43,215 bases of DNA, taken from a virus. Of the stretch, positions 1-17,182 are shown piece by piece; position 1 is the first letter of the stretch, and each line of letters starts with the position of its first letter. The notes beneath the pieces are model-generated. The model was not told the origin of the DNA. It did no database searches and saw only the letters and a list, made by a program, of their open reading frames with translations. Location of the stretch: UHGV virus genome UHGV-0324072. One strand, given 5' to 3'. Position numbers and translations under genes: made by a program.

Positions 1-612
1 ACCGAGAGCGTAAAGCATAAGCTGCTTGTTTTCTTTCGCTTCGACGCGATGCCGTCCTGTTTTAAGGTCGCCGATAATGAGCATCGCGGAGTTACTTTCA
101 CCTGTAAAGCCTTCTATAACCGCCACTAAGTCGGCTGTCCCGAATGTCTCTAAATCATCCTCCTTACCTTCTTCACTCTCAGCAGGTACTTTGTAGCCCG
201 GATGCAATACCTCAGTAAGATTGACACGCATTTCCAGCTTGGCGTAAGTCGCTACATCGATAATCGCTTTGCAGTAGTCGGTGTACTTGCGAACCTGTTC
301 AATCATGTCAGCCGTAATCAGTACCGCGCCTTTCATAGGGCTGATTAACGCCTTAATCTGGCCTTTTCCTTCGTCCAGTACATAAGCGCCGACTTCACGT
401 TCTAATGGCAACGCAGTGCCTTTGATGTACTGGTTAAGGTGTATCTCGGCTATGGTGTGCATTGCCGTGCCTAATATCGCAGCTTTACCGGACGTGTCAG
501 GAATATCCTTTTCACAGGCCAGTGATGCGGCGCAGGTTAACCACTTTTTAGCACCTGACGGTGACAGTAAGGCGTGTACGTCGTTATTGCCGCCGCGTTC
601 TTTTAGAATCAT
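1..612 (-). CDS. DUF2800-family PD-(D/E)xK (Cas4/RecB-like) nuclease, N-terminal part; ORF runs off window start and continues in frame at 42547..43215
   Basis: ATG at 612 (RBS GGAGAG upstream); translation MILKERGGNNDVHALLSPSGAKKWLTCAASLACE...; no stop before position 1; family call from motif memory. Confidence 0.6.
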   Translation of the reverse strand, partial: MILKERGGNNDVHALLSPSGAKKWLTCAASLACEKDIPDTSGKAAILGTAMHTIAEIHLNQYIKGTALPLEREVGAYVLDEGKGQIKALISPMKGAVLITADMIEQVRKYTDYCKAIIDVATYAKLEMRVNLTEVLHPGYKVPAESEEGKEDDLETFGTADLVAVIEGFTGESNSAMLIIGDLKTGRHRVEAKENKQLMLYALG

Positions 613-956
613 CGTAAACTCTCCAAATACAAGTTTAATGCCTGTAGCTGTTCTTCTGTGGGGATGAAAGAATCATCACGATGTAAGTCGCTTAACTGTT
701 GCAGCATTCCTGCGAACTTACGTCTTGCGTCAACAGTGGCCATGTGATGCTTTTCGCTTTTGTATATTAATGTTTTCGGGTAATCCTCAAGTCTTCCAGA
801 CGATTTATTCACGCGGAGTGCTCGAGCTTCATGCGCAATGTGGATGTACTTTTTGCCGTTTTGTAGCACAGTAGCTACGCCGCTGTTCTTTCTGCGGTCA
901 CCGACGGTGTAAACCTTGTCACCACTACGCAGATTAAGCCACCATTTATCCGTCAT
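609..956 (-). CDS. hypothetical protein (115 aa)
   Basis: ORF track 609..971; ATG at 956 overlaps upstream stop (ATGA); stop overlaps start of nuclease gene. Confidence 0.5.
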   Translation of the reverse strand: MTDKWWLNLRSGDKVYTVGDRRKNSGVATVLQNGKKYIHIAHEARALRVNKSSGRLEDYPKTLIYKSEKHHMATVDARRKFAGMLQQLSDLHRDDSFIPTEEQLQALNLYLESLR

Positions 957-1225
957 ACCCGGTTCTCCCACTGGTCAATTAAATGTCGTGTCTTGTGGTC
1001 ACAATGCATCGCCCAGCTATACATCGACTCGAAGACATAAAAGTCACTTTTAACGAATGTCGTGCGCTTAATCTGCGACAGGTGACGGCCTATATCTTTC
1101 GGCTTCGGTACTTTGCCGAGGTAGGCCATCTCTTCCATCTGGTGCGCGCCGGACGGCGCACGCAACAGCCACAACGCCTCTGTGTTACCCCGTCGGTCAA
1201 TACCTCGGTAGAGTTGGTAAATCAT
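953..1225 (-). CDS. hypothetical protein (90 aa)
   Basis: ORF track; ATG at 1225 with GAGGG RBS; coupled to downstream gene. Confidence 0.5.
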   Translation of the reverse strand: MIYQLYRGIDRRGNTEALWLLRAPSGAHQMEEMAYLGKVPKPKDIGRHLSQIKRTTFVKSDFYVFESMYSWAMHCDHKTRHLIDQWENRV

Positions 1226-1268
1226 ATTACGACCCTCTGTTAAAGCGGCCCGGAGGCCGCCAGATAAA

Positions 1269-1769
1269 TTATTCTTCTTCGAAATACTTGTTCTTAATCG
1301 CCGTCAGGCGTTTCAGGTATTCAGCCAGGTCTTCGTCTTTAATCGCGGCAATCTTCATTTTCTTACCGGTGAACTCCTCCAGCAGTTCATCGGAATCGTC
1401 GCACGCAGCATCGCTAGGACCCTCGTTAATTGCATCGTCGATAGTCTGAATCTGGTCACGAAGAGACTGGTAATCGACCTCTTCTTTCTCTTCTTCTGGT
1501 TCTGGAGTCGGCTCCTCTACTTTAGCTTTACGCGGCTTGCGTTTCGGCTTCTCTTCTTCTGCTGGTTTAGCGTCAACGATGTCTTCACCTTCAACAGGGA
1601 TTTCTTTTGTTGCTTCTTTTTCGCACTCAGCTACCGCTTCTTTGGTATACACTACCGTCTCTACTTCTAACGGCGCTGCAACTTGTGCTGACTGTTTCGC
1701 ACTGTTCGCAGCAATCAGTTCATGTGCAACTACGAAACGTTCCAGTAATTTTAAGAATTGTTCTAACAT
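1269..1769 (-). CDS. acidic hypothetical protein (166 aa), first gene behind promoter at 1801..1829
   Basis: ORF track; ATG at 1769 with strong RBS (rc GAGAGGAGAGAAACAA); Glu/Asp-rich. Confidence 0.55.
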   Translation of the reverse strand: MLEQFLKLLERFVVAHELIAANSAKQSAQVAAPLEVETVVYTKEAVAECEKEATKEIPVEGEDIVDAKPAEEEKPKRKPRKAKVEEPTPEPEEEKEEVDYQSLRDQIQTIDDAINEGPSDAACDDSDELLEEFTGKKMKIAAIKDEDLAEYLKRLTAIKNKYFEEE

Positions 1770-1800
1770 TTGTTTCTCTCCTCTCGTTTGGTATGGGCTA

Positions 1801-1829
1801 ACTATAATAGCGAACTATTCACATGTCAA
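1801..1829 (-). promoter_or_regulatory. sigma70-like promoter (minus strand): -35 TTGACA, 17-bp spacer with ATAGTTCGCTAT palindrome, -10 TATAGT
   Basis: rc of 1801..1829 reads TTGACA-N17-TATAGT; same architecture at 38774..38802 and 42333..42361. Confidence 0.55.
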
Positions 1830-1893
1830 TGGGCTTTTCTAAAATAATTAATATGGTACTATTCACATATCAACTGACTAAGGAGTAATTGAC

Positions 1894-2109
1894 ATGCAAC
1901 CATCTGAACTAGGCATCCGTGTAGAACAACGCCGCAAAGAACTCGGCATCTCCCAGCGCCGTTTGGCGGCCCTGACCGGCGTTTCCCAGGGCGCGATTAA
2001 CCAACTGGCACTTGGAGTAACTCAGGACGTCCGCCCGGCAACGCTGTTCAAACTGGCGGAAGTTCTGGAAGTAGACGCCAAGTGGCTGGCGTTAGGTGAA
2101 GGGGCTTAA
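1894..2109 (+). CDS. XRE/Cro-type helix-turn-helix transcriptional regulator (71 aa)
   Basis: ORF track; ELGISQRRLAALTGVSQGAINQL HTH-like segment; RBS AAGGAG 9 nt upstream. Confidence 0.6.
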   Translation: MQPSELGIRVEQRRKELGISQRRLAALTGVSQGAINQLALGVTQDVRPATLFKLAEVLEVDAKWLALGEGA

Positions 2110-2124
2110 AGCCCCTTTCTTTTT
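2101..2124 (+). terminator. rho-independent terminator after XRE gene
   Basis: GGGGCT-taa-AGCCCC hairpin followed by TTTCTTTTT. Confidence 0.55.
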
Positions 2125-2126
2125 AC

Positions 2127-4361
2127 CTATTCCAAATCCTCCTCTGTCACCACCAGCATCTCATTTGGTTCGTATAGTGTCTTCGGCCTTAATCTATCCC
2201 CTATTCTTTCGGGTATACGATATGTTCTCGGTACTACTTCGCCGTTAGCATCGCAACCAAGCATTAGTTCTCCATCTTTCAACATTTTATCAAGATGGGT
2301 GTTAGTCACAGAGAAGTCACCGGAACGAGCCACTATCTGCTGCTGAGTAAAACCGCGACCTGTGTCATCTGACTGTTGCAGGTCTTCCAGTGCCGAAAGT
2401 ATTGACTCCTTCCTTACTTCATCCCTGCCGCGTTTAACTTCTTCCTTTACTTTTTGCTTACCTTCTTTCGTCAACCCTTCTTCCCGCTCTTTCTCCTCGT
2501 CAGTTTTGAACGGCTCGAAACCCCACGGCATCAACACAAGCGCCTTGTGTGGTTCAGGAAGGTCCAGGTTTACGATTGTGCCGTATTCTTCTGTGCCCCC
2601 CAGGAACTCAACCGCACGGTACTCTTTCGGCGGCGGAGCTTCGCGGAACTGCACAGACTCCAGCACCATGCCAACCGTTTTCTGTTGAGGACCGTGCTTA
2701 AATTTCGAGTGGTATACGTTTATTTGACGGTCGGTTGCACGTTCGATTGTCAGTTCCACGTCAACACCCGCATACAGCGCCCCACTGCCGCGTGCTTTCT
2801 TTCCGCCCTTCTGCGTATGGTGGACAACGCCTACTGCGGCTTTAGTTGCATCGCGTACTTCTTTCAGAATGGCGATAACTTTACCCATGCCGATTGCTGT
2901 TGATGAACTGTTCTCGTCGAACTTATCAATCGTCAGTGCCAGGGTCTGGTTAAGGGTGTCGAACGCAACCATGCCAATTGGCTCGTCGCCAGCAGTTTCG
3001 CGCATTAACTTAATCAGGCTTTTAAGTTTGCCGACTTCGCCCATATCGATGACGTGTACATAATCTTTACCTTCCCCGCCATATTTAGCCGCTAGTGCAT
3101 CAATACGGGTGCGTGTAGCTGCGCCACCCTCACCATCAATATAGAAATGGTGGCAACGCTGGGTATCCGCCCCCGCAAACCTGTACCCGGCGGCGCTGAG
3201 GTACATCATCCCCAGCGTATAGAACGATTTGTACGTGCCAGATTCCCCGACGATATCCCAGATACAATCCGACGGCATGTACCCCTCAACGACGAAATCA
3301 GCCTTTACCGGCTCCGGTAACTCGTCCCCCTCTGAGTCCTCCTCTGAGTCCTCGTCGTCTTCCAGGTCGTCGAGGCTGCAAGTTACTGGGTCCTCGTTCT
3401 CTGTGCGGTGTAGTTCTTCAATCTCTTCTTCCGGTAAATCAGGCAGAGCCGCACGAATGCTGTTAATGCTGATAGGTTGCTTGTCTACGTTAAGCTCGTC
3501 TGGCAGGCCGCACATACGCAGGGCCAAATGCTGTCGGCGGTTAAGCTCGGTGCAAGCGCCGTTGTTTGTATGCTGGCAGACAAAGCGCACTTCTTTACCG
3601 TCGAGCATTATGCTGGTGGAGCCCTTGCCTGTATGCAGATGTTCGTTAGGGCATGGCACTTCGTACCCGCGCCCGGAAGATAAAGCGTCAAGGCCAAGCT
3701 CGGCTTCGCAGAAGTGTGCTATATCCGCGTTAAGCCCATGCTCATCAGCGGCAAGTGTTTTAGCCTCACGCTTACGCAACCCCATCTCTTCGGCTTTCTT
3801 GATGTACCGCTCGGCACGGATAACACGCCCTTCTGTAACCGTTATCTTCGACTCTTTGTGCGGCAGGTAGATAAGGCGGTTGCCATCTTCCGTGCAGTGG
3901 TCGCGCAACGCTTCGTCTATTTCTAACTCTGCACAAATAGCACGTTGCACCATCCACGCGTCGTTAGAGTTAAACGGCGTGCGAGCTGGAACCAGAACGC
4001 GGAAAGCGTAATCTCCGTTTTTACACACATGCTGATGCGATGCCGTTGTATGCAGAATATTGAAGAACGGTGCGTTCTTGAATTTGCGGGTAAGGTCGCG
4101 GTACTGAGTACGGTTGAGATGGTCAAAATCGAACTTAACCACACTGTCTTCCAGAATAGCGTTCTTACGGCGACCGCCAACAGGCGCAATAGCTTTCTGT
4201 TTAATCTTGGCCGCGTCGTACTCTTCCTTAGTCCATGACGGGTCCACGGATAAACGCTTCGATGTATCGCAGACATACTCCACAAACTGCTCGAGCGGCA
4301 TCTCACGCGCTACAGGGTTTTTATCGAATGTGTTACGCAGCGTTGCAAAAACAATATTCAT
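2127..4361 (-). CDS. DNA primase/helicase fusion (N-terminal primase-polymerase-like region, C-terminal RecA-fold replicative helicase)
   Basis: 744-aa ORF; Walker A-like GESGTYKSF, RecA/DnaB-like helicase segment; Cys/His-rich zinc-binding-like central region; C-terminus VVTEEDLE. Confidence 0.7.
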   Translation of the reverse strand: MNIVFATLRNTFDKNPVAREMPLEQFVEYVCDTSKRLSVDPSWTKEEYDAAKIKQKAIAPVGGRRKNAILEDSVVKFDFDHLNRTQYRDLTRKFKNAPFFNILHTTASHQHVCKNGDYAFRVLVPARTPFNSNDAWMVQRAICAELEIDEALRDHCTEDGNRLIYLPHKESKITVTEGRVIRAERYIKKAEEMGLRKREAKTLAADEHGLNADIAHFCEAELGLDALSSGRGYEVPCPNEHLHTGKGSTSIMLDGKEVRFVCQHTNNGACTELNRRQHLALRMCGLPDELNVDKQPISINSIRAALPDLPEEEIEELHRTENEDPVTCSLDDLEDDEDSEEDSEGDELPEPVKADFVVEGYMPSDCIWDIVGESGTYKSFYTLGMMYLSAAGYRFAGADTQRCHHFYIDGEGGAATRTRIDALAAKYGGEGKDYVHVIDMGEVGKLKSLIKLMRETAGDEPIGMVAFDTLNQTLALTIDKFDENSSSTAIGMGKVIAILKEVRDATKAAVGVVHHTQKGGKKARGSGALYAGVDVELTIERATDRQINVYHSKFKHGPQQKTVGMVLESVQFREAPPPKEYRAVEFLGGTEEYGTIVNLDLPEPHKALVLMPWGFEPFKTDEEKEREEGLTKEGKQKVKEEVKRGRDEVRKESILSALEDLQQSDDTGRGFTQQQIVARSGDFSVTNTHLDKMLKDGELMLGCDANGEVVPRTYRIPERIGDRLRPKTLYEPNEMLVVTEEDLE
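2130..2147. repeat. 18-bp exact repeat TTCCAAATCCTCCTCTGT (second copy 42550..42567), encoding C-terminal TEEDLE of two replication proteins
   Basis: identical nucleotide strings at both gene 3' ends. Confidence 0.8.
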
Positions 4362-4486
4362 TTCTTTTTCTCCGCACGTTCTAAGGCTTCCTGCATACGG
4401 CGCATTGCGCGGTTCATCTTTACCGGTGCGAAGAAGTCAGCGCCGTGTTTCTGGCGGCGTAGCTGTGGAACTATTAACTTTGTCAT
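4358..4486 (-). CDS. small basic protein (42 aa) translationally coupled to primase/helicase start
   Basis: ATG at 4486 with AAGGA RBS; stop overlaps primase ATG (ATGA); below the 60-aa track cutoff. Confidence 0.35.
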   Translation of the reverse strand: MTKLIVPQLRRQKHGADFFAPVKMNRAMRRMQEALERAEKKK

Positions 4487-4526
4487 TGTATAATCCTTAT
4501 GCTTACTTTGATGATTTGTACTTTAG

Positions 4527-4558
4527 CCCCGACGTTCTGGCGTTGGGGTTTCTTTTTA
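4527..4558 (+). terminator. plus-strand hairpin plus T-run inside a minus-strand gene block
   Basis: CCCCGACG-ttctgg-CGTTGGGG then TTTCTTTTT; T-run only on plus strand. Confidence 0.3.
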
Positions 4559-4846
4559 CCGTTTAGCCAACCCTTCCAGCAAATTTTTATACTCTTCAAA
4601 ATATTCCTCGACCAAATCATCGCCGAAATAGAAGTCGATATACTCGAGATTATCTCTTACGTTAAGCGATGCCGACATGGTGCTTAGTTGGCGTAAGCTA
4701 ATTAGCTTCATTTCTGTTTCTACGCAGAAAGGCCGGTAGGTATCAAGATGGCAAGAGATATTGAAGCATAAAGCGAACTCTCCGGCCACGGAGTGAACCA
4801 TATACACTTCGTTTTCTGCTTTATTGTGGAAAATTACGCCTTTCAT
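4556..4846 (-). CDS. hypothetical protein (96 aa), coupled to AlpA-like regulator gene
   Basis: ORF track; ATG 4846 overlaps stop of upstream gene (ATGA). Confidence 0.5.
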   Translation of the reverse strand: MKGVIFHNKAENEVYMVHSVAGEFALCFNISCHLDTYRPFCVETEMKLISLRQLSTMSASLNVRDNLEYIDFYFGDDLVEEYFEEYKNLLEGLAKR

Positions 4847-5025
4847 TTCACGTTCTCCTTAATCCATGCTTCGACTTTATTACGGTCAAATGTTCCCGGT
4901 AAACGGCGGCCCATAACCTTAATACAGCAGTCAGGGAATTTGCCGCTGCGCAACCAGTTATTAATGGTCTGACGTGTCACCCCGATACGCTCGGCTACCT
5001 CATTCTGTGTCATGTAATGTTGCAT
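4843..5025 (-). CDS. AlpA/excisionase-family HTH DNA-binding protein (60 aa)
   Basis: ATG at 5025 (RBS AGGGGA); MTQNEVAERIGVTRQTINNWLRSGKFP typical AlpA-type HTH; track start is an upstream alternative codon. Confidence 0.55.
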   Translation of the reverse strand: MQHYMTQNEVAERIGVTRQTINNWLRSGKFPDCCIKVMGRRLPGTFDRNKVEAWIKENVK

Positions 5026-5056
5026 TTTTATATCCCCTGTTTGTTTAGTGAAACCG

Positions 5057-5085
5057 AGTATAGGATAGCGGGAATGTAAAAGCAA
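5057..5085 (-). promoter_or_regulatory. candidate sigma70 promoter for AlpA-like operon (TTGCTT-N17-TATACT, minus strand)
   Basis: rc of 5057..5085. Confidence 0.4.
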
Positions 5086-5122
5086 CCAATCCCTGCAATA
5101 TTTAATCTTTACAAAAAAGTTA

Positions 5123-5152
5123 TTGAAAGTTCTTGACACATGTTTGTATAAT
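5123..5152 (+). promoter_or_regulatory. candidate sigma70 promoter (TTGAAA-N18-TATAAT) facing a 350-bp ORF-free region
   Basis: TTGAAA 5123..5128, TATAAT 5147..5152. Confidence 0.45.
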
Positions 5153-5159
5153 GGTTTTG

Positions 5160-5380
5160 GGACTTGTATATATTACGGAGTTGACGAACCCTCCCCGAGG
5201 GATTCGTCAACCCCTCCCAGACAGCTGAGATGCTTGCCTTGTGGTTTAAGGATAAGTGTATCTAAATCTCATTTAAAGAAGTAACCCGCTGAAATATCTA
5301 CTGTTTCTTAATGTGCCGTAGATTCGCAACCGTAAAAATGTAACGATTATTGGGCAGGCCCTAAGCCTGCCCTTTAGTTA
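5160..5380 (+). ncRNA. candidate small non-coding RNA between promoter 5123..5152 and terminator 5353..5380
   Basis: no ORF over 11 codons on plus strand; 13-bp stem-loop 5181..5210 near the 5' end; GGGCAGGC-ctaa-GCCTGCCC plus TTTAGTT terminator at 3' end. Confidence 0.25.
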
Positions 5381-5444
5381 CCAAGTAATAAGAATAAAGG
5401 CACAACAGTTTCGAAAGAATCACAACGGCAACGTAACTATTCTC

Positions 5445-5473
5445 TTGCACACCACAACATAATAGGATACTAT
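5445..5473 (+). promoter_or_regulatory. early promoter, class TTGCAC-N17-TACTATTCA
   Basis: TTGCAC 5445..5450, TACTAT 5468..5473. Confidence 0.5.
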
Positions 5474-5507
5474 TCACTTATCGAAACGAGACAGAGGAGT
5501 GAGGGTT

Positions 5508-5699
5508 ATGTTTAAGAAGGGTCAGTTGGTTAAAACTAAACGCGGATGGCAATATGTATTAGTGTTGCAGGACGAGAGCGAGTATGACGAGGATAATCTG
5601 GTTGACGTATGGGGTCTGGTAAGAAAGAAAACTGGGTTCGCCTCCCGCGATAATTTAGAACTCATCGGCAACAATTTTAAATTCAAAGGGGCGAAGTGA
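5508..5699 (+). CDS. hypothetical protein (63 aa)
   Basis: ATG 5508 behind GAGGAGTGAGGG RBS; track start at 5499 is GTG. Confidence 0.45.
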   Translation: MFKKGQLVKTKRGWQYVLVLQDESEYDEDNLVDVWGLVRKKTGFASRDNLELIGNNFKFKGAK

Positions 5700-5935
5700 T
5701 GCAAATCATAATTACGGATAACACAGTTGCCTACGAAAAAGGTGGCGACAATACTCTGGAAAGAATAGGCGTAAATATAGGTGACGTTTTTGATGTGCTT
5801 GGTACTGTATCAGGCGGTTGGTGGATTAAGGTTGGACACAACAAAGTGCCAGTAACTAAGGCCGAAGCGGAAATATACACAACGGCATCGAATCATGATG
5901 CTCGTGCCAACGACTCTGAGGGAGGTTGCCGTTAA
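5699..5935 (+). CDS. hypothetical protein (78 aa)
   Basis: ATG 5699 overlaps upstream stop (TGATG). Confidence 0.45.
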   Translation: MQIIITDNTVAYEKGGDNTLERIGVNIGDVFDVLGTVSGGWWIKVGHNKVPVTKAEAEIYTTASNHDARANDSEGGCR

Positions 5936-6126
5936 TGAGAATTCGTATAACTGATGTTGATTATGTGGACCCGCGCGATGGTGACGATTTGCCGCTTAGT
6001 TACTGGGGCGTTGCAGTAGGAGATGAGTTTGAGGTTACACACGCCGGTTCCGCTATGTTCATTATTGAACGTGACGCGGGGTATGTAGTTGTGTATGCAA
6101 GTGAATGCGAAGTTCTGGAGGACTAA
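5935..6126 (+). CDS. hypothetical protein (63 aa)
   Basis: ATG 5935 overlaps upstream stop (TAATG); RBS GAGGGAGG. Confidence 0.45.
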   Translation: MRIRITDVDYVDPRDGDDLPLSYWGVAVGDEFEVTHAGSAMFIIERDAGYVVVYASECEVLED

Positions 6127-6129
6127 GTT

Positions 6130-6273
6130 ATGAGAGAAGCATTCGAACGATGGGCCGTAGTCGAGGGTCTGCCGGTTAACAAGGGTTCGAAGAAAGAGTA
6201 CCTGAACGTTAAGACGCGTCTTGCGTGGCGGGCGTGGAAAGCTGGTGCGCAAGCTGTGATGAATAAGGGGTGA
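6130..6273 (+). CDS. small hypothetical protein (47 aa)
   Basis: ATG 6130, GGAGGA RBS about 10 nt upstream; fills gap between tracked ORFs. Confidence 0.35.
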   Translation: MREAFERWAVVEGLPVNKGSKKEYLNVKTRLAWRAWKAGAQAVMNKG

Positions 6274-6276
6274 TTT

Positions 6277-6516
6277 ATGGGCGAGTGGATTAAGTGTAGT
6301 GAGATGCTGCCAGGTAATGGGTATACAGATAAAGAGTTCCTGGTGTATGAAACGTTAAATAACGCAGTTCAACACGATTATTACATCGTTCCTGATGACG
6401 GGAGAAAGCCTTTCTGGAATAACTACGATAAGTACGTGACGCACTGGATGCCGTTACCCGAGCCGCCAGAAGTGTTATGTTATACTGTAACAATAGTTTG
6501 GGATTTTACTGAGTGA
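6277..6516 (+). CDS. DUF551-like phage protein (79 aa)
   Basis: ORF track; C-terminal THWMPLPEPP motif recalled as DUF551 signature. Confidence 0.45.
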   Translation: MGEWIKCSEMLPGNGYTDKEFLVYETLNNAVQHDYYIVPDDGRKPFWNNYDKYVTHWMPLPEPPEVLCYTVTIVWDFTE

Positions 6517-6518
6517 CC

Positions 6519-6555
6519 TACGCTGCTACACAGCAGCGTATCATTTTTCTCATTT
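6519..6555 (+). terminator. rho-independent terminator
   Basis: TACGCTGCT-acac-AGCAGCGTA then TCATTTTTCTCATTTTTG. Confidence 0.55.
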
Positions 6556-6633
6556 TTGTTCTATTTCACCAAACGCAACAATCGAAGCGACTATTGCGGG
6601 AGACGCAACAATACAAACACCAATAAAATTTAC

Positions 6634-6662
6634 TTGCACGCTGGGATAGAATAGGCTACTAT
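6634..6662 (+). promoter_or_regulatory. early promoter, class TTGCAC-N17-TACTATTCA
   Basis: TTGCAC 6634..6639, TACTAT 6657..6662. Confidence 0.5.
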
Positions 6663-6691
6663 TCATTTACACAAACGAGAGGAGAGATAAT

Positions 6692-6961
6692 ATGGTACAG
6701 AGATATGAGGTAAAAGCGTGGGGCCTGCCAGAGCCTGAGATGGCTGAGTACGCATACGGCGATTATGTAGAGTACGACAGCTATAAGGAACTGGACGACT
6801 ATTACCAGGAACGTCTAGCCGACGCCGACAAGGAAATAGAAGGGCTTGTGTCGAGACTGGCAGAAGTAAACGCCGAGCTACAGAAATACAAAGACCAGTA
6901 CCCTGATTACGTCGAGTGCGCGAACTGCGGGTCGGTTACACATGTGGAGGGGGTGGAGTGA
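6692..6961 (+). CDS. hypothetical protein (89 aa)
   Basis: ORF track; RBS GAGGAGAG. Confidence 0.5.
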   Translation: MVQRYEVKAWGLPEPEMAEYAYGDYVEYDSYKELDDYYQERLADADKEIEGLVSRLAEVNAELQKYKDQYPDYVECANCGSVTHVEGVE

Positions 6962-7254
6962 TGTCGTTAGCAACTGACATCCTGAAACGAAGCGGCCTTG
7001 CGCCGCTGTCACCGAGAGCGAAGACACGTATACACAAGCGTCGCCGTAACGTGCTGTACCCAGAGATACAAGAACGGCGTAAAGCTATCCGCGCCTGTGG
7101 ATTCCAGAACGGAAAGGCCGTGAATCTCGGTGAGTTTAAAACAAAGGAACGCGCAGCTATCGCGAACCGGCTATTTAATTACTGGAAATCGCTGGGGTAC
7201 GATGATATTCCGACGAAACCACAGAGACGACAATACATCTGGAGACATAAATGA
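6961..7254 (+). CDS. basic hypothetical protein (97 aa)
   Basis: ATG 6961 overlapping upstream stop; track start 6916 is an alternative codon. Confidence 0.45.
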   Translation: MSLATDILKRSGLAPLSPRAKTRIHKRRRNVLYPEIQERRKAIRACGFQNGKAVNLGEFKTKERAAIANRLFNYWKSLGYDDIPTKPQRRQYIWRHK

Positions 7255-7691
7255 CTACTATCGCGTTTGACGGAAAGACAATGGCCTGTGATACCCGTGT
7301 TGTGTGCGGGAGTAACTGTTACAACACAGACACAAAGATATACGAGAACGAATTTGTTGTTATTGGGGCGGCTGGCGATGCAGGGGTTGGTATCCTTTTA
7401 GTGGAGGACGATAGTATTTTAGTGCCTAAGCACTACGATTTTGATTTCTCTGCCTTGGTGTGGGTTAAAGACATCGAAACGTTGTGTAGGGTGGAGTTCT
7501 ATAAATCTTGGGATTGTGCTCTTAGTTTGGTTATTCAGATTGCGGACAGCTTTTCCGCCGTTGGTTCAGGCGCCCCTTATGCCCTAGCGGCTATGGAATG
7601 TGGGTATTCGGCGCAAGGTGGTGTAGCAGTTGCATCGAAGTTCTACCCTGACACCGGCGGCAAGATTATTACCAAACAACTATTAGGATAA
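7251..7691 (+). CDS. HslV/proteasome-beta-like N-terminal nucleophile (Ntn) hydrolase (146 aa)
   Basis: N-terminus MTTIAF (Thr directly after Met) and AVGSGAPYALAAM resemble HslV TTIV and IGSGGPYAQAAA; ATGA coupling to upstream gene. Confidence 0.45.
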   Translation: MTTIAFDGKTMACDTRVVCGSNCYNTDTKIYENEFVVIGAAGDAGVGILLVEDDSILVPKHYDFDFSALVWVKDIETLCRVEFYKSWDCALSLVIQIADSFSAVGSGAPYALAAMECGYSAQGGVAVASKFYPDTGGKIITKQLLG

Positions 7692-7750
7692 TTCCTAACC
7701 GTGCTATCCTCCAGTTACTGCATACTTAATACGCACCTGGAGGGTTCATC

Positions 7751-8059
7751 TTGGATAAATTTACTGAAACAGTGACTGGGTGGCTTCTGGCAGCCGCACT
7801 AGCTGGTGGGGTAATCGGACTACGACAACATAAGTCCGCTATTTCCGGCCCTATCGACGGATTCTGCTTTATTGCAACTGGCTTCACTTGCGCCGTATTT
7901 GGCGCGCCTCTCGCCGCTCAATGGTTCGGTATTACCGGAGAGCGCGAGATAGCTGGCCTCGGATTCATCATCGCAATTCTCTGGATGCCCATCTATTCCC
8001 GTCTCTCCGGTATCGTCGCCGGAGAATACATCGCACGTCGAGGAGGCACAGATGAATGA
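7751..8059 (+). CDS. putative holin (three predicted transmembrane segments)
   Basis: TTG start 7 nt after GGAGGG; hydrophobic stretches GWLLAAALAGGVIGL, FCFIATGFTCAVFGAPLAA, IAGLGFIIAILWMPIY; sits upstream of endolysin. Confidence 0.45.
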   Translation: MDKFTETVTGWLLAAALAGGVIGLRQHKSAISGPIDGFCFIATGFTCAVFGAPLAAQWFGITGEREIAGLGFIIAILWMPIYSRLSGIVAGEYIARRGGTDE

Positions 8060-8324
8060 ATTATTCTGGTTCGGCGGTATGCTGGCAATCGGAGGCACAT
8101 CGCTGTTTAATGTATATCACCCCAGCGTGGATGACGGATTATTTGGCCGTGTGCTATATATCCTGACCGCTATTGTCTGCGCCGCAGGATGTATCCACCT
8201 GTTACAGGGCAGCATGTCTCCGACGCTGCCTGAGACATTAATCACATTAGTTGCGCTGCGCCAGATTCGTCAGACGTGGCTGTCATACGGAGGACATAAG
8301 CGTGTCTCGAAATATTTCAGATAA
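8052..8324 (+). CDS. membrane protein, putative second holin/antiholin (two transmembrane segments)
   Basis: ORF track; ATG overlaps end of holin gene. Confidence 0.4.
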   Translation: MNELFWFGGMLAIGGTSLFNVYHPSVDDGLFGRVLYILTAIVCAAGCIHLLQGSMSPTLPETLITLVALRQIRQTWLSYGGHKRVSKYFR

Positions 8325-8414
8325 TGGACTTACCGCAGATAAGCTGCGCGAGGTTTTACACTACGACCCCGATACCGGAGTTTTCGCGAACCATAAATTA
8401 CGGGAAGGTGCTTT

Positions 8415-8900
8415 ATGAGAAACATTAGCAACAATGGCATCAAATTCACCGCCGCGTTCGAGGGATTCCGCGGAACTGCGTATCGTGCTACGCCAAATGA
8501 GAAGTACCTGACTATTGGGTACGGTCATTATGGGCCAGACGTAACGCCAGGCAAGACCATCACCCCGGGACAAGGCCTCCTGTTACTGAATCGTGATATG
8601 GCTAAGGCCGTAGCTGCGGTTGACGCAGCAGCACACCATTCATTGACACAGGCACAGTTCGATGCAGTGTGCGACCTGGTATACAACGCAGGTGCTGGTG
8701 TGATTGCTGCTACTACCGGCACGGGTAAGGCACTGCGTTCTGGTGATATTGCAACGCTGCGGGCTAAGCTGACACTGTTCATCAACCAGAACGGCAGACC
8801 GTTACTTGGTCTGCGCCGCCGTACTGCCGGTCGTCTGGCGCTGTTCGACGGTAAACCGTGGCAAGAGGCAGAGGCTATCGGGCGCGCGGTGAAAGGTTGA
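8415..8900 (+). CDS. endolysin, GH24 phage lysozyme
   Basis: FEGFRGTAYRATPNEKYLTIGYGH catalytic Glu-Asp-Thr lysozyme motif; RBS GGAAGG. Confidence 0.85.
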   Translation: MRNISNNGIKFTAAFEGFRGTAYRATPNEKYLTIGYGHYGPDVTPGKTITPGQGLLLLNRDMAKAVAAVDAAAHHSLTQAQFDAVCDLVYNAGAGVIAATTGTGKALRSGDIATLRAKLTLFINQNGRPLLGLRRRTAGRLALFDGKPWQEAEAIGRAVKG

Positions 8901-8964
8901 CACCTGAGACTAATCCGACGATACTTAAATCACCTCCTGTTCCATACCTCTGCTCTCCAGTTTT

Positions 8965-8998
8965 ATCCCGGCCCTGACCCAGCCGGGATTTTTTTTAT
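8965..8998 (+). terminator. rho-independent terminator after endolysin
   Basis: TCCCGG...CCGGGA hairpin followed by TTTTTTTT. Confidence 0.65.
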
Positions 8999-9018
8999 CT
9001 ATTTTCTGCAATGACTAG

Positions 9019-9047
9019 TTGACTATTACCTACGACCCTATTATATT
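9019..9047 (+). promoter_or_regulatory. sigma70-like promoter TTGACT-N17-TATATT
   Basis: TTGACT 9019..9024, TATATT 9042..9047. Confidence 0.45.
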
Positions 9048-9080
9048 TACTCCATCGACAACGAGAACGGAGTAGAGAAG

Positions 9081-9278
9081 ATGAGTAACGTACAGACAAT
9101 CGCAATAACCGAGGAACTTGAAGCCAAATGTATCGCATCAGTTATAGGGAATGGTTCGGTGGAAAAACTACAGATGAGGGCCGCTGCGGGCTACATACGC
9201 AGGGCTAATAGTGCGATGAATGATTCCTTACGTAAACGTTACCTCATGAAAGCGTTAGAAATTCTGGAGAATAAGTAA
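9081..9278 (+). CDS. hypothetical protein (65 aa)
   Basis: ORF track. Confidence 0.45.
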   Translation: MSNVQTIAITEELEAKCIASVIGNGSVEKLQMRAAAGYIRRANSAMNDSLRKRYLMKALEILENK

Positions 9279-9427
9279 TGAAAATCACAGATATTGAGGC
9301 ATTCAAAGACGCACAACTGATGGCACGTATCGCCGTTAGTAACCTTAGCAACAGCATCCCGGCAGACGCGTTCTGGTTCGCTGCGATGCAGACACTTAAA
9401 GCAGCATATGCAGGAGAGAAGAAATGA
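9278..9427 (+). CDS. small hypothetical protein (49 aa)
   Basis: ATG overlaps upstream stop (TAATG) and downstream start (ATGA). Confidence 0.35.
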   Translation: MKITDIEAFKDAQLMARIAVSNLSNSIPADAFWFAAMQTLKAAYAGEKK

Positions 9428-9621
9428 AAGTTAAAGCAGCTAAAATTCTCTGGTTACCCGCCCTTGACTATGTCACAGAGGGTAAAGTGTATGATGTATA
9501 CAACCCGACAGCTACTGGTTTCGGTTATATAGACTCCGACGACGACTGCCATATTTTCATAGACTTTGGTAACGATGACGGTGATGGTTTCCACGGCGTT
9601 AAATGGGAGGTTGTAGAATGA
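9424..9621 (+). CDS. hypothetical protein (65 aa)
   Basis: ORF track. Confidence 0.45.
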   Translation: MKVKAAKILWLPALDYVTEGKVYDVYNPTATGFGYIDSDDDCHIFIDFGNDDGDGFHGVKWEVVE

Positions 9622-9776
9622 GCGAACAAGGTCAAGTAAGCCAACCACTACTGGTAGGCCGTAAAGTCAGCCACACCCCGTTCCCGACACGCGAGGAACT
9701 GATGAAACGTAACAGTTTCCCTGGGCCGGACAAGAACAAGTATCTCAATCGCATGTGGGGAGAGCGTAAAGTATGA
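9618..9776 (+). CDS. small hypothetical protein (52 aa)
   Basis: ATGA overlaps at both ends. Confidence 0.35.
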   Translation: MSEQGQVSQPLLVGRKVSHTPFPTREELMKRNSFPGPDKNKYLNRMWGERKV

Positions 9777-9997
9777 CTAATAACGAATATGAAAAAGCAT
9801 GCGTCGAATCCGCGACCGGTGAATCTGAAATAGCGTGGATTGACACCCACATCGAACACCACTTACGGCAGGTGGATAATCTTATGGAACGCCGCCGTGA
9901 GCTGATTAGCCGCTTCAACATGAACAAGGGGCGCGCTATTTCTGACGATTTCGATGGGGATTACCGAAATGGCGATTTTTATGAGGGAGCCGAATAA
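9773..9997 (+). CDS. hypothetical protein (74 aa)
   Basis: ORF track. Confidence 0.45.
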   Translation: MTNNEYEKACVESATGESEIAWIDTHIEHHLRQVDNLMERRRELISRFNMNKGRAISDDFDGDYRNGDFYEGAE

Positions 9998-10296
9998 TGC
10001 CTAAAATCACAATTGCATCGCTCGAGCGCCGTATTATGGTGCTTGAGTCGGAGAAACAGACGTTAGGCGGGCAACTGTCAATTAACGGTGAGTTTCAACT
10101 GGAGGCGTATAAAGAACTTCTAGAGGCGTTTAAAGAGCTACAAGCCATCGCGTCTGACATAGAAAATATGATTGGATTGTTGCAATCCGGGGAGTGGGCC
10201 GAACACTGCACTAAATCGGCGTTAGGAAAACGGCTTGAGACGGAGATTACTGACATGCTGAGTTGTCTTGTTGAGGCGCCAGATGAGCACGCCTGA
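9997..10296 (+). CDS. hypothetical protein (99 aa), coiled-coil-like
   Basis: ORF track. Confidence 0.45.
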   Translation: MPKITIASLERRIMVLESEKQTLGGQLSINGEFQLEAYKELLEAFKELQAIASDIENMIGLLQSGEWAEHCTKSALGKRLETEITDMLSCLVEAPDEHA

Positions 10297-10465
10297 GCCG
10301 GTAGTTATCGATGGCGTCCTGTGGAAACCTTACTCGGTTAACCACATCGACGCCGATGGGAAGAAGTTCAGTTTCTACATTTTTGCGATTAGCCGCGAGC
10401 ACGCTGCGTGTGTAGTAGACGATATACGAGAAACGGCGTGGCTTGGCGATGAGATAGTGGTGTGA
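10283..10465 (+). CDS. hypothetical protein (60 aa)
   Basis: ATG 10283 in frame of track ORF 10268..10465. Confidence 0.4.
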   Translation: MSTPEPVVIDGVLWKPYSVNHIDADGKKFSFYIFAISREHAACVVDDIRETAWLGDEIVV

Positions 10466-10552
10466 GAGCATGAGTCTTGAGGTTGTTATAAGTCTGGTTG
10501 GTCTTAGTTACTTCATTGGGCTATTGGTCGGTTTTCTGTGGGGTAGATACTA

Positions 10553-10723
10553 ATGTTCAGCGACATCAACGCAGCAATCGAAGAAGCAATCTGGCGCCGT
10601 TACAACGGCGAGCAACAGCGTCACTTCTGCCTGGTGCAACGTGGTAACATGGTCGCCGTGGTGCAGGACCGCGATAACAAATATCCGAATGCGATGTGGA
10701 CAACGAGGAATTTCTTAGGATGA
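10553..10723 (+). CDS. small hypothetical protein (56 aa)
   Basis: ATG 10553; plus-strand frame in gap between tracked ORFs; ATGA coupling to next gene. Confidence 0.35.
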   Translation: MFSDINAAIEEAIWRRYNGEQQRHFCLVQRGNMVAVVQDRDNKYPNAMWTTRNFLG

Positions 10724-10956
10724 TTACCAGCATTCCTAACCTGATTAAAGAATATGGCACGATGGCCGAGACATGCCGACAAACCGGCATCAACGAAATG
10801 ACTATTGCTAAGTACAGCAAAGATGTTAACTGCGATCGCCACGTAATTTTTAACAACCGTCTGATGACGCACGTTAAGACAAGCCCGGTGTTATTCACGC
10901 GCCGGGGTATCACTAAAACAGAGCAACGCATTGCTAAAGAGGAGAGTGGGGAATGA
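10720..10956 (+). CDS. hypothetical protein (78 aa)
   Basis: ATG 10720 in frame of track ORF 10696..10956. Confidence 0.4.
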   Translation: MITSIPNLIKEYGTMAETCRQTGINEMTIAKYSKDVNCDRHVIFNNRLMTHVKTSPVLFTRRGITKTEQRIAKEESGE

Positions 10957-10982
10957 GACTACTAGTCTTTCCGAATTCCTGG

Positions 10983-11010
10983 GCTATCGCCGTAGCTATC
11001 GCCGTAGCTA
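10983..11010. repeat. tandem direct repeat GCTATCGCCGTA x2 plus partial third copy
   Basis: copies at 10983..10994 and 10995..11006, then GCTA. Confidence 0.7.
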
Positions 11011-11070
11011 ACGACCATTACGGCGGCGACGGTAAACGAGCGCCACGCCACGGCCTATATAACTGATACA

Positions 11071-11094
11071 AGCCCTCTACGGAGGGCTTTTCTG
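11071..11094 (+). terminator. rho-independent terminator upstream of terminase genes
   Basis: AGCCCTC-tacg-GAGGGCT then TTTCTGT. Confidence 0.5.
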
Positions 11095-11187
11095 TACATC
11101 CCGCCCAATCCCCTTATATAATCCCTTTAGACGCGTAGGGCGCGTCTGGTGCGCTCTGATGGTCAGACGCATATGCAAGGGGATTCT

Positions 11188-11733
11188 ATGAAGCTGAAAC
11201 TTAAGCAGCCATCGCCAGAGGTGGTACAAGCTGCACATGAAGAAGCTGTTAGCGCAAACCGTCGCCGTAAACGACCGCGCGGTAAACAGAGCATTTATCA
11301 ATCATCCCGTAATTCCGCCGCGTTGTGGGACCCGGACTATTGCGATGCATTGATTCGTTTCTTCGACCGCACGTCGTGGGAGCTTGTGCCAACGTCTAAG
11401 GGTGACGAACGCCCACTGATTCAGGATAAACCACCGTCACTGGCCCGCTTCGCCTTACACATCGGAGTCACTATCCCGATTATTAAGCTTTGGCTGCGTG
11501 AGATTCCCGCATTTGCAGAAGCCTGGGAGACAGCACAGGCGCTGGAAGATGCTTATTTCACTGAGACAGGGGCCGCCGGTATCTCGGCTACGTTTGCTGC
11601 CGCTAAGCTGGGCCTCGGCAAAGAGAAACCAGTCGAATCCGCCGAAGAAACAGCACCGACTGAGATTATTTTCAGTGTTGCAGAGCCTGTAGGTAAAATC
11701 GTAACAACGAATATGGGCGAGGCAGAGGAATGA
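11188..11733 (+). CDS. putative terminase small subunit
   Basis: ATG 11188 (RBS AAGGGGA); basic N-terminal region; immediately upstream of and overlapping terL; called by position. Confidence 0.45.
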   Translation: MKLKLKQPSPEVVQAAHEEAVSANRRRKRPRGKQSIYQSSRNSAALWDPDYCDALIRFFDRTSWELVPTSKGDERPLIQDKPPSLARFALHIGVTIPIIKLWLREIPAFAEAWETAQALEDAYFTETGAAGISATFAAAKLGLGKEKPVESAEETAPTEIIFSVAEPVGKIVTTNMGEAEE

Positions 11734-12980
11734 GTATTCAGCTATCCGCACCACAGGCGCTGTTCCTGAATTGTGATAACAAGTACAAAGCTTATGTCGG
11801 TGGGTTCGGCAGCGGAAAGACATTCGTAGGCTGCCTTGACCTGCTTACGTTTATGCTCAAGCACCCTGGTACGCGCCTGGGCTACTTCGGCCCGACATAC
11901 CCGGCCATACGTGACATCTTCTACCCGACATTCGAGGAAGCGGCTAACCTCCTCGGCCTCGATGTGCTGGTTAAATCCGGCGACAAAGAGGTCGTTGTTA
12001 CGCGAGGCAAGACGGTGCTCGGTACGGTTATCTGCCGTTCAATGGATAACCCCGGCTCGATAGTTGGTTTCAAAATCGCTGCGGCGGTCGTGGATGAACT
12101 GGACGTATTGAGCCGTGAGAAAGCCGAGCTGGCGTGGAACAAAATCGTCGCCCGTATGCGTCTGGTTATCCCGGGCGTAATTAACCACATCTCCGTCACC
12201 ACGACACCGGAAGGGTTCAAGTTCGTCTACTCCAAGTTCAAGGAGAACCCGACACCGAGTTACTCTATGGTGCAGGCATCAACTCATGAGAATGCGAGGT
12301 TCCTGCCGCCGGATTACATTAGCTCGCTAACAGAGACTTACCCGGCGCAACTGATTAACGCGTATCTGAATGGTGAGTTCGTCAACCTGACATCCGGCAG
12401 CGTGTATTACGCCTATGACCGCCGTAAGCACCGCAGCAAAGAGACAATTCAACCAGGCGACACTTTGTACATCGGGCAGGACTTCAACGTTACGAAGAAC
12501 GCAAGCGCCGTGTATGTACAACGTAAAGACGGCTGGCACGCGGTAGCAGAACTGAAGGGCCTGTTCGATACGCCGGACACCGTGCGCGTAATCACCGAGA
12601 AATGGAAGTCGCAAGGCCACCGCATCGTCGTTTACCCCGACGCCAGCGGCAAGAACCGAAAAACCAACTCAGCGTCAATCTCTGATATTGCATTACTCCA
12701 GCAGGCTGGGTTCGATGTTCGCGCTAAATCAGCCAACCCCCCGGTTAAAGACCGTGTTTTAGCCGTGAATACCGCGCTGGAAAAAGGTAAGCTGTGGATT
12801 AACGACCACTTATGCCCTGAGATAGCGAAGACGCTGGAGCAGCAGGCATATGACGATAACGGAGAGCCAGCTAAAGACGGCATCATTGACCATATGGCAG
12901 ATGCGCTCGGCTATCCTGTAGTTTACGAGATGCCGGTGGTTAAACCCGTAATCAACATCCCGGTGACTTTCGCACTTTAA
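11730..12980 (+). CDS. terminase large subunit
   Basis: Walker A GGFGSGKT near N-terminus; 416 aa; ATGA overlap with upstream gene. Confidence 0.8.
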   Translation: MSIQLSAPQALFLNCDNKYKAYVGGFGSGKTFVGCLDLLTFMLKHPGTRLGYFGPTYPAIRDIFYPTFEEAANLLGLDVLVKSGDKEVVVTRGKTVLGTVICRSMDNPGSIVGFKIAAAVVDELDVLSREKAELAWNKIVARMRLVIPGVINHISVTTTPEGFKFVYSKFKENPTPSYSMVQASTHENARFLPPDYISSLTETYPAQLINAYLNGEFVNLTSGSVYYAYDRRKHRSKETIQPGDTLYIGQDFNVTKNASAVYVQRKDGWHAVAELKGLFDTPDTVRVITEKWKSQGHRIVVYPDASGKNRKTNSASISDIALLQQAGFDVRAKSANPPVKDRVLAVNTALEKGKLWINDHLCPEIAKTLEQQAYDDNGEPAKDGIIDHMADALGYPVVYEMPVVKPVINIPVTFAL

Positions 12981-12992
12981 GAGGATTATTCA

Positions 12993-14462
12993 ATGTTAAC
13001 TATGCACGGTCAGAATCAGGGTGTTAAGACAAAACACCGGGAATGGCTGCATCACTTCGATAAATGGCAGAAGGTGCGCCACGCACTGGAAGGCGACCTT
13101 ATTCGCTACCTCCGTAATGTAGGGAAGAACGAGCCAGACCCTACCTACGCAGCCCAGCGCCAGGAAGAATACGAGAACGGTGCTATCTGCTACAACTTCA
13201 CAAAACGTACCCTGGCCGGGATGGTGGGGTCGGTGATGCGCAAAGACCCTGAGCAGATTATCCCGCCTGAACTGGAGTACCTGTTACGCAATGCTGACGG
13301 TTCCGGTGTCGGGCTGTGGCAGCACGCGCAGGACACTTTGATGGAGATTGATTCTGTGGGTCGTGGCGGGTTGCTGGTGGACGCCCCGGAGACAGCCGCG
13401 GCAACGGCGGCAGAACAGAACGCGGGGTTATTAAACCCGGTCATAGCATTCTACACCGCTGAGAACATCATCAACTGGCGACTGACTCGCATCGGTTCTG
13501 TTAACCGTGTGACGATGGTTGTGTTGCGCGAGGTATGGGAATACTCGGAACCGGGCGCAGAGTTCGAAACAAAGTTCGGGGAACAGTATCGTGTTCTTGA
13601 CCTGATTGAGGGCCGCTACCGCCAGCGCATTTACCGCTTCGATGCCGAAGGTGGCGCTCAGGACGAAGTAATCGAAATCTTCCCGGAACTTGGCGAACAG
13701 TTACGCGGCAAAATCCCGTTCACATTCATCGGGGCAAGCAACAACGATGCGACCATCGACGATGCTCCTTTGCTGCCGTTGGCTGAGCTTAATATCGGGC
13801 ATTTCCGCAACAGCGCGGACAATGAGGAGTCGAGCTTCGTTGTAGGCCAGCCCACGCTGTTTATCGCCCCCGGCGAGAACATGAGCATGGAACAGTGGAA
13901 AGAGGCCAACCCTCACGGTGTGCGCATGGGGTCGCGCTCAGGCCATAACATCGGTTACGGAGGTAATGCGTTTCTTGTCCAGGCGGGGGAGAATAACCTT
14001 GCCAAGCAGAACATGCTGGATAAAGAGAATCAGGCAATCCAGATTGGCGCACAGCTTATCACCCCGACGCAGCAAATCACCGCAGAATCGGCCCGCCTGC
14101 AACGCGGCGCTGATACTTCAGTTATGGCGACAATCGCGCGTAACGTAAGCATGGCGTATACAGACGCGTTGCTCTGGGTAGCTGCGATGCTCGGATTGCG
14201 TGAAGGCACAGAGGTTGATTTCAAACTGAATATGGAGTTCTTCCTGCAACCGATGACCGCTCAGGACCGTGCACAGTGGATGGCGGACATTAACGCCGGT
14301 TTGCTACCCGCCACTGCTTACTATGCTGCGTTGCGTAAGGCGGGTGTAACTGACTGGACTGACGAGGATATTCAGAACGCTATCGAGGATGCGCCTCTGC
14401 CGTTAGGTGCTGTTACTCAGGTGGCAGGGGAGATTCCGCAGTCGGTGCAGCAGCAGGAGTAA
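12993..14462 (+). CDS. portal protein
   Basis: 489-aa ORF directly after terL; RBS AAGAGGA; called by position and size. Confidence 0.65.
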   Translation: MLTMHGQNQGVKTKHREWLHHFDKWQKVRHALEGDLIRYLRNVGKNEPDPTYAAQRQEEYENGAICYNFTKRTLAGMVGSVMRKDPEQIIPPELEYLLRNADGSGVGLWQHAQDTLMEIDSVGRGGLLVDAPETAAATAAEQNAGLLNPVIAFYTAENIINWRLTRIGSVNRVTMVVLREVWEYSEPGAEFETKFGEQYRVLDLIEGRYRQRIYRFDAEGGAQDEVIEIFPELGEQLRGKIPFTFIGASNNDATIDDAPLLPLAELNIGHFRNSADNEESSFVVGQPTLFIAPGENMSMEQWKEANPHGVRMGSRSGHNIGYGGNAFLVQAGENNLAKQNMLDKENQAIQIGAQLITPTQQITAESARLQRGADTSVMATIARNVSMAYTDALLWVAAMLGLREGTEVDFKLNMEFFLQPMTAQDRAQWMADINAGLLPATAYYAALRKAGVTDWTDEDIQNAIEDAPLPLGAVTQVAGEIPQSVQQQE

Positions 14463-14467
14463 AGAAA

Positions 14468-14487
14468 AAGGCCCCGCTAGGGGCCTT
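14468..14487. terminator. bidirectional hairpin terminator AAGGCCCC-gcta-GGGGCCTT
   Basis: perfect 8-bp GC-rich stem between convergent genes. Confidence 0.6.
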
Positions 14488-14491
14488 AGCT

Positions 14492-15145
14492 TTAACGTAT
14501 ATTAGCCGCACATTTACGCACAACCCGAGGTATCGCCTCTTTCAGTTCACCCCATGTATTAACGGCCTCCATGTCAAGAAGTGTCACCAGAGCTTTCTGG
14601 ATGTCACTTCGCAACTGATTGGTCTTCGCATCCTGAGAGTCCCATGTATCGAAACCCGTTACGTCGCGGATATCTACGGATTCCTTTACCGCTTTAGCCA
14701 CCTGTATGAAGTGTCCACTGTGGCCAATTCTTCCCTCCGTGCGCTCAATCATTCGACTAACGGCAGCGTTAAGCTCGACAAAGCTCACCGCGCCAATGTT
14801 TCGTAGTTCTACCTGCCGTTGTGTGATAAAGCGGTCGATAACGAGGAAATGGAAATAGGCGCTGTATTGCTCAGCAATATATACTGCCAGATGGAGACAT
14901 GCAAAGGTGCGACCGTTTCGGCCTTTCGTCGCCCTTATGGCATTCTCGATTCCGAGTTGTTTTTCGCATTCCTCCTTGAAAATCTTGAAGCCATCCGTTG
15001 CCATGACCTGGCGAAGCTCTCTTGCCCCCATGCCGTTGTCTAAACGCCAACGGTTCATCTGGTCAACCAGCTCGTTTACGTTAATAAAGTTTTCACGGTC
15101 AAAAGTGATTTCTCCATAAGGGAACTCTAATGTTTGCAGTTTCAT
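14492..15145 (-). CDS. KilA-N domain protein (217 aa), reverse-oriented insertion
   Basis: KGRNGRTFACLHLAVYIAEQYSAYFHFLVIDRF resembles the KilA-N core; ATG 15145 with AGGAG RBS. Confidence 0.5.
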   Translation of the reverse strand: MKLQTLEFPYGEITFDRENFINVNELVDQMNRWRLDNGMGARELRQVMATDGFKIFKEECEKQLGIENAIRATKGRNGRTFACLHLAVYIAEQYSAYFHFLVIDRFITQRQVELRNIGAVSFVELNAAVSRMIERTEGRIGHSGHFIQVAKAVKESVDIRDVTGFDTWDSQDAKTNQLRSDIQKALVTLLDMEAVNTWGELKEAIPRVVRKCAANIR

Positions 15146-15172
15146 GCGTATTTCTCCTGTTTAAGTGTACGT

Positions 15173-15202
15173 TTAAATTCTACATTTGAATGTAGAATTT
15201 AA
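15173..15202. promoter_or_regulatory. perfect 13-bp-arm palindrome (candidate operator) upstream of KilA-N gene
   Basis: TTAAATTCTACAT-ttga-ATGTAGAATTTAA; overlaps candidate minus-strand promoter TTGATT-N18-TAGAAT (15177..15206). Confidence 0.5.
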
Positions 15203-15287
15203 TCAAGCTCTTTTTAACCTTAAATGTGTATGATTATGCCAATACGTTACCGACTGATATGATTGTCATATCGAAACAGGAGGGTAT

Positions 15288-16792: not shown

Positions 16793-16795
16793 TAA

Positions 16796-16816
16796 AAGGC
16801 CCCATTACGGGGCCTT
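16796..16816. terminator. bidirectional hairpin terminator AAGGCCCC-attac-GGGGCCTT
   Basis: between convergent genes 16331..16792 and 16822..17025. Confidence 0.6.
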
Positions 16817-16821
16817 AGTTT

Positions 16822-17025: not shown

Positions 17026-17052
17026 TTTTCACCTCCTGTTTAAGTTAACTGA

Positions 17053-17149: not shown

Positions 17150-17182
17150 GACTTTTCACTAAAAATATGATAAGCTCCACCT

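Follow-up and report, generated by a model that had tools for sequence, protein, structure and literature searches.

Genes at the ends of the window

The DNA analysed here, referred to as the window, is the whole 43,215-nt stretch of the virus genome UHGV-0324072, and its two ends lie within a run of minus-strand genes (Table 1). The order on this strand is helicase-primase, three small genes, a nuclease, a 67-aa gene, a Gp2.5-like protein and a family A DNA polymerase, with a C-5 cytosine methylase and an SNF2 helicase further along. The combination duf2800-gp2.5-polA has been published as a phage replication module (PMC8093625). The start codon of the nuclease (612..610) overlaps the stop codon of the upstream gene (ATGA), which itself gave a weak match to Phage_ProQ_C_like, just under the Pfam cutoff. 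At the other side, the 67-aa gene overlaps the nuclease stop codon, the same arrangement as for Bas72_0045 in Escherichia phage NicoleGrasset_Bas72 (Bas72; PQ850621.1).

Table 1. Positions of the genes discussed in the text, in window coordinates
Feature	Position	Strand	Remarks
Nuclease gene, 5' half	1..612	-	Codons 1-204; translation, alignment, Pfam DUF2800 and PDDEXK_1
Nuclease gene, 3' half	42547..43215	-	Codons 205-426 and stop; translation, alignment, structure model
Upstream gene, same operon	609..971	-	120 aa (ORF listing), 115 aa (Logan contig calls)
Helicase-primase, replicative	2127..4361	-	Heads the replication module spanning the window boundary
Small terminase subunit, 194 aa	11149..11733	+	Conventional record start of Bas72 and many relatives
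Large terminase (TerL)	11730..12980	+	Terminase_6N / Terminase_6C (Pfam)
Portal	12993..14462		
Phosphoesterase / 'DNA repair exonuclease'	24626..25756	-	Contains the opening point of SRR5239747_4344
Family A DNA polymerase, 726 aa	39261..41441	-	Third member of the duf2800-gp2.5-polA module
Gp2.5-like ssDNA-binding/annealing protein	41653..42279	-	Pfam Enc34_ssDNA-bd (formerly DUF2815), Bas72 annotation
Small downstream gene, 67 aa	42347..42550	-	Gene call on SRR5239737_766 18101..18304

A near-consensus sigma-70-like site (TTGACA-17-TATAGT, 11/12) is located on the minus strand at 1829..1801, upstream of an ORF at 1769..1269, and judged by its sequence it could act as the driver of the sub-operon that contains the nuclease. 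The number of sigma-70-like sites in 1-6500 was not above the shuffled expectation, and in the vicinity of the boundary neither promoter-like nor terminator-like sites exceeded their frequency in shuffled sequence. Scans of the whole window for tRNAs and Rfam families were empty.

One nuclease gene across the window ends

The minus-strand reading frame at 612..1 is exactly 204 codons long (translated as MILKERGG...KQLMLYALG), and the one at 43215..42547 has 223 codons including the stop (222 plus stop; VYRRLKRR...EEDLE). When base 43215 is placed next to base 1, the two form an uninterrupted frame of 426 aa without a frameshift, opened between codons 204 and 205, as the sequence-only reading had claimed from the phase of the codons. 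On the circularised sequence, the frame crossing the junction stays open for 446 codons from stop to stop, compared with 90 and 48 codons for the other frames.

Agreement in phase has by itself a 1-in-3 chance, therefore the stronger support for a single gene has to come from external evidence. The same modest odds would suit a different explanation, in which the window ends are physical, or sequence is missing between them, and the two ORFs are separate or truncated genes that are in phase by chance. It would also suit this explanation that, when the window ends were compared, no terminal overlap of at least 10 nt was found that could prove closure. External evidence for a single gene was found among the homologs. 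Near-identical intact proteins of 426 aa, with 1 residue different in each, are encoded on independent contigs of ~44 kb, and an exhaustive search retrieved 10,911 homologs at E <= 0.001, which are single proteins of ~370-450 aa and many of which align as one stretch through residues 204/205. The two end ORFs are one gene of 426 aa.

Family, motifs and predicted fold of the nuclease

Compared with Pfam, the joined protein aligned to DUF2800 (PF10926) in one stretch, with residues 13-415 on positions 1-368 of the 368 of the profile (E = 8.6e-65), and its score of 219.7 bits against a gathering cutoff of 21 places it within the family. Matches were also obtained to PDDEXK_1 (E = 2.4e-8) and to PHROG 69 'exonuclease' (E = 3e-119). 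The proposal that the joined ORFs encode a DUF2800-like PD-(D/E)xK nuclease is confirmed by this continuous match of the full-length translation. DUF2800 was listed as RecB-like in a survey of PD-(D/E)XK proteins (PMC3424549).

Invariant residues were determined from an alignment of 63 diverse homologs with 28-59% identity. C27, H52, E127, D161, D182, K184, Q197 and Y201 are encoded at 612..1, while C277, C280, C286 and K349 are encoded at 43215..42547. The catalytic PD-(D/E)XK residues (D161 and D182-x-K184, here D182-L-K184, with Q197xxxY201) are all in the 612..1 half. The nuclease domain is closed by the triad C277-X2-C280-X5-C286 and the fourth cysteine, C27, comes from the opposite half of the gene, giving in the alignment the four-cysteine pattern C-Xn-C-X2-C-X5-C of the Cas4/AddB type. 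C27 and the triad presumably hold a 4Fe-4S cluster, as this pattern suggests. The division of the catalytic residues and the cysteine set between the two window ends argues against two separate genes whose phase agrees by chance.

The sequence-only reading had placed the cysteine cluster at the C-terminus, which needs correction, as it lies at residues 277-286 of 426, with C27 beyond the boundary, and is followed by a further domain of ~125 aa (residues ~300-426; window 42550-42930, minus strand). This C-terminal domain was confidently modelled and is conserved, with the invariant K349, a near-invariant G342...W360 and a DKRP-like tail; no function could be assigned to it from the top fold matches inspected.

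The AlphaFold2 model built from the alignment had a pLDDT of 92.3 and a pTM of 0.83. The window boundary falls inside helix 196-209 of this model, and a boundary inside a confidently modelled helix is again difficult to reconcile with physical ends. A Foldseek search of PDB returned the nuclease domains of AdnAB, AddAB, Dna2, MGME1, Exo5, Cas4 and RecE, with a probability of 1.00 to those of AdnAB, AddAB, MGME1, Dna2 and Cas4, which gives the protein a restriction-endonuclease-like fold. By sequence, the family profile reaches the nuclease domain of AdnAB in an alignment that takes in the C-x2-C-x5-C region; a search of PDB sequences with the joined nuclease as a single sequence found nothing. 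By predicted fold and motifs, the protein has a RecB-family PD-(D/E)XK nuclease domain.

The PD-(D/E)XK fold, the D...D-x-K...QxxxY residues and the C...C-X2-C-X5-C pattern are shared with AddB/AdnAB, Dna2, Exo5 and Cas4, although the likeness is remote (12-19% identity, Foldseek E ~1e-4, TM ~0.2-0.4). Unlike these proteins, the window nuclease stands alone, without a helicase domain or a CRISPR context, and has the extra C-terminal domain. Within DUF2800 it is a typical member, with the profile span of the Pfam family and the gene order of the duf2800-gp2.5-polA module, and no differences from them were found.

Cas4 proper was considered as an identity for the nuclease and rejected. Neither cas1/cas2 nor a CRISPR array accompanies the gene, whose neighbours are the helicase-primase, the Gp2.5-like SSB, PolA, the SNF2 helicase and the methylase. 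The window nuclease resembles Cas4 in its fold and is not a Cas4.

The window as a complete genome

An artificial junction query of 1,400 nt was made from the last 700 nt and the first 700 nt of the window. It matched positions 31429-32828 of Bas72 as a single ungapped alignment with 100% identity, and in 133 phage records one location covered at least 80% of the query. Bas72 carries the gene intact as Bas72_0046 'exonuclease' (XPK42623.1; 31460..32740). DNA identity to the window is 100% through the gene and for 60-90 nt beyond it on either side, and the gene has the same neighbours and lies at the same place in the module. The Bas72 record starts at the small terminase gene, which is why the nuclease is intact there; elsewhere the two genomes diverge and their TerL alleles differ. 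Window 1..11148 corresponds to Bas72 32129..43746, and window 11149..43215 to Bas72 1..32128, with 93.6% of the window aligned and collinear, and the bases 43215|1 correspond to the adjacent Bas72 bases 32128|32129.

Independent assemblies gave the same result. Over the 21,547 bp retrieved, Logan contig SRR5239737_766 agrees exactly with the circularised window; it encodes an identical 426-aa protein and crosses the junction (window 43215 is record position 40667 and window 1 is 40668). A second Logan contig, SRR5239747_4344, is exact to the window over 21,251 bp. Both contigs are 43,245 bp long, that is 43,215 + 30, and 30 nt is the k-1 overlap that a k=31 assembler would be expected to leave on a circular contig, the overlap here being derived from the length and the mapped offsets. 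For SRR5239737_766 the ends lie in the helicase-primase gene (window 2549/2578), and for SRR5239747_4344 in the phosphoesterase gene (window 25203/25232). One circle has therefore been opened in three different genes by three assemblies, indicating that the break points are choices of the assembler and not physical ends. The exact 40-nt junction is also internal to two IMG/VR contigs. Both GC and AT skew are below zero at the two window ends and above zero between them, a pattern which fits a single minus-strand replication module crossing the boundary.

Extra sequence between 43215 and 1 was looked for, and there was none in Bas72 or in the Logan assembly; no base is missing or extra at this point. 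Physical ends, missing junction sequence and two genes in phase by chance are refuted by the ungapped junction in Bas72, the collinearity and the identical independent contig that reads through the junction, with two other assemblies opening elsewhere, and the chance that we would still allow them is negligible. The window is almost certainly a whole phage genome of 43,215 bp, that of an E. coli siphophage of the Kagunavirus type (Guernseyvirinae), obtained as a circular assembly which was opened arbitrarily inside the nuclease gene. The suggestion of a complete genome linearised arbitrarily within a gene is therefore upheld by the Bas72 collinearity and the junction-crossing Logan contig. The split gene is a product of linearisation and not a biological feature.

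Nothing about the boundary is new. It is a linearisation artefact of a known kind, in a known gene of a known family and module and in a phage of a known genus; the observation is real and ordinary. A Kagunavirus genome and a DUF2800 nuclease are both in public databases already. The use of the observation is mainly practical: in annotation the window has to be handled as a circle, since a linear annotation would miss the nuclease or call it as two pieces, and would make the conserved nuclease - Gp2.5 - PolA module look interrupted. A second gene split by linearisation was seen in the genus, in the K1H RefSeq record NC_027994.1, where the small-terminase CDS (41049..4) crosses the record origin.

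Relatives and mosaic structure

The nearest GenBank relative is Bas72, to which the window is ~89% similar genome-wide (identity x aligned fraction). K1H was 90% identical over 78% of an 18-kb window query, and nucleotide matches were mostly to Kagunavirus and Jerseyvirus records. With genome-wide similarity beyond the level of about 70% or more that is used for Kagunavirus, and the common architecture, the window belongs to this genus. A search of the phage collection found no record at least 99% identical to the window genome. On these comparisons the genome may represent a new species-level Kagunavirus, which would be a routine finding.

The terminase-portal region of the window (11613-14458) is mosaic, being unalignable or only 82% identical to Bas72, whereas its flanks are 95-99% identical. 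Two TerL alleles are present in Guernseyvirinae: 74 records are at least 95% identical to the window allele and most other matching records are at ~54%.

Two further differences from Bas72 were observed. Window 14459-15286 is an insert between the portal and head-morphogenesis genes that is absent from Bas72, and its ORF (14492..15145, minus strand, 217 aa) gave a sub-threshold match to KilA-N (E = 4.6e-4; 20.4 bits against a cutoff of 23.8). From its sequence and placement, this ORF may be a mobile or moron gene. In Bas72, an 'endonuclease VII' gene (27401-28174) adjoins the DNA polymerase gene, and the window is without it (at ~39262-39271), which looks like the presence or absence of a homing-endonuclease-like gene.

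DNA packaging

A gene that runs across contig ends is a sign of a closed, circular assembly only, which cos and terminal-repeat phages produce too, and is uninformative on the packaging mechanism; packaging therefore needs independent evidence. De Bruijn assemblers close cos and terminal-repeat genomes into circles as well. Genes spanning contig ends were found in two cos phages (PMC9409062), and in BASEL circular contigs were explained in general by the fusion of repeats at the genome ends (PMC11990801). The window could, along these lines, be an arbitrarily opened circular assembly of a phage whose virion DNA has fixed ends elsewhere, either cos or short direct terminal repeats, and is not headful-packaged and permuted. 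One Kagunavirus paper has the terminase recognise a cos site, in a general phrase for which it gives no data (PMC9825357); this would agree with fixed ends, and so would a small terminase that had no match in Pfam and hence gave no packaging clue.

The large terminase and the data from relatives point the other way. TerL of the window is of the Terminase_6N/6C type, which is common to T4-like headful enzymes, and is 99% identical (413/416) to TerL of K1H and P AB-2017. The terminases of these two phages are close to those of phages with a headful strategy (PMC5582158), and through this placement the window TerL falls into the headful cluster. A search of PDB sequences with TerL as a single sequence found nothing. 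The TerL for which there is experimental packaging evidence is that of the Jersey type, to which the window TerL is only ~54-55% identical (55% to the Bas72 / Jersey allele). For phage K47 of the sister genus Jerseyvirus, headful packaging was concluded from PhageTerm, from an EcoRV digest with a circular-like pattern and from a broad band in PFGE (PMC10783031), and Jerseyvirus Se_F1 was scored as redundant and permuted (PMC9409062). In Kagunavirus fBC-Eco01, PhageTerm found no termini at 651x coverage.

The K1H/K1G-type Kagunavirus and Jerseyvirus phages are like the window in their size of ~41-45 kb and in architecture, and it is to relatives of the window phage that the packaging evidence belongs. 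Judged by TerL and these relatives, headful packaging with permuted virion DNA is probable for the window phage, and fixed ends are unlikely. The sequence-only reading had taken the split gene to fit a headful-packaged, circularly permuted genome; this mode of packaging stands as likely on the evidence of TerL and the relatives, while the split gene itself cannot show it.

Proposed role of the nuclease

The Gp2.5-like protein encoded downstream is the likely partner of the nuclease. By analogy with known systems, the nuclease would resect DNA ends for the Gp2.5-like annealing protein, and resection and annealing together could support recombination-dependent replication and the formation of concatemers. 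A headful (pac) terminase would then cut the concatemers into terminally redundant, circularly permuted virion DNA, and virion DNA of this kind would account for the closing of assemblies into circles without fixed ends.

In lambda Exo/Beta, RecE/RecT and T7 gp6/gp2.5, the nuclease gene likewise adjoins a gene for an ssDNA annealing protein, and RecE and lambda Exo were weak fold matches of the window nuclease in Foldseek. The likeness to these three pairs is functional only, as the window nuclease belongs to the Fe-S RecB-like group and not to the toroid group of lambda Exo. In the literature, no experiment was found on any DUF2800 protein that addressed nuclease activity, polarity or Fe-S binding.

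We tentatively suggest, as a reading which is open to considerable doubt, that the DUF2800 Fe-S nuclease and the Gp2.5-like protein could be a widespread two-component recombinase making concatemers for headful packaging and that, separately, the genome could be that of a new Kagunavirus species with a swapped K1H-type terminase-portal module.

Related contigs in bacterial assemblies

Four nucleases 90-92% identical to that of the window are encoded on contigs of ~43-45 kb in NCBI Escherichia coli records, one of which is labelled as a plasmid. It seems that bacterial assemblies can contain Kagunavirus genomes as extrachromosomal contigs, either via carry-over or via a carrier state. Near-identical nucleases in such a setting could also mean that the window is a circular extrachromosomal replicon, plasmid-like or a carrier-state phage, and not packaged linear DNA. 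Carry-over is a common source of phage contigs in bacterial assemblies. In the window, the virion, terminase and lysis genes form a full set, the genome is collinear with lytic phage isolates, and among the genes scanned there were no partition, plasmid-replication or integrase genes. For relatives, among them the BASEL isolates, linear virion DNA has already been demonstrated. A replicon of this kind is therefore very improbable compared with the genome of a packaged phage.

The same phage genome was found in three SRA runs of a consecutive series, whose run numbers gave no match in the literature searched, as contigs SRR5239737_766, SRR5239747_4344 and SRR5239738_4081, which were 100% identical over the stretches retrieved.
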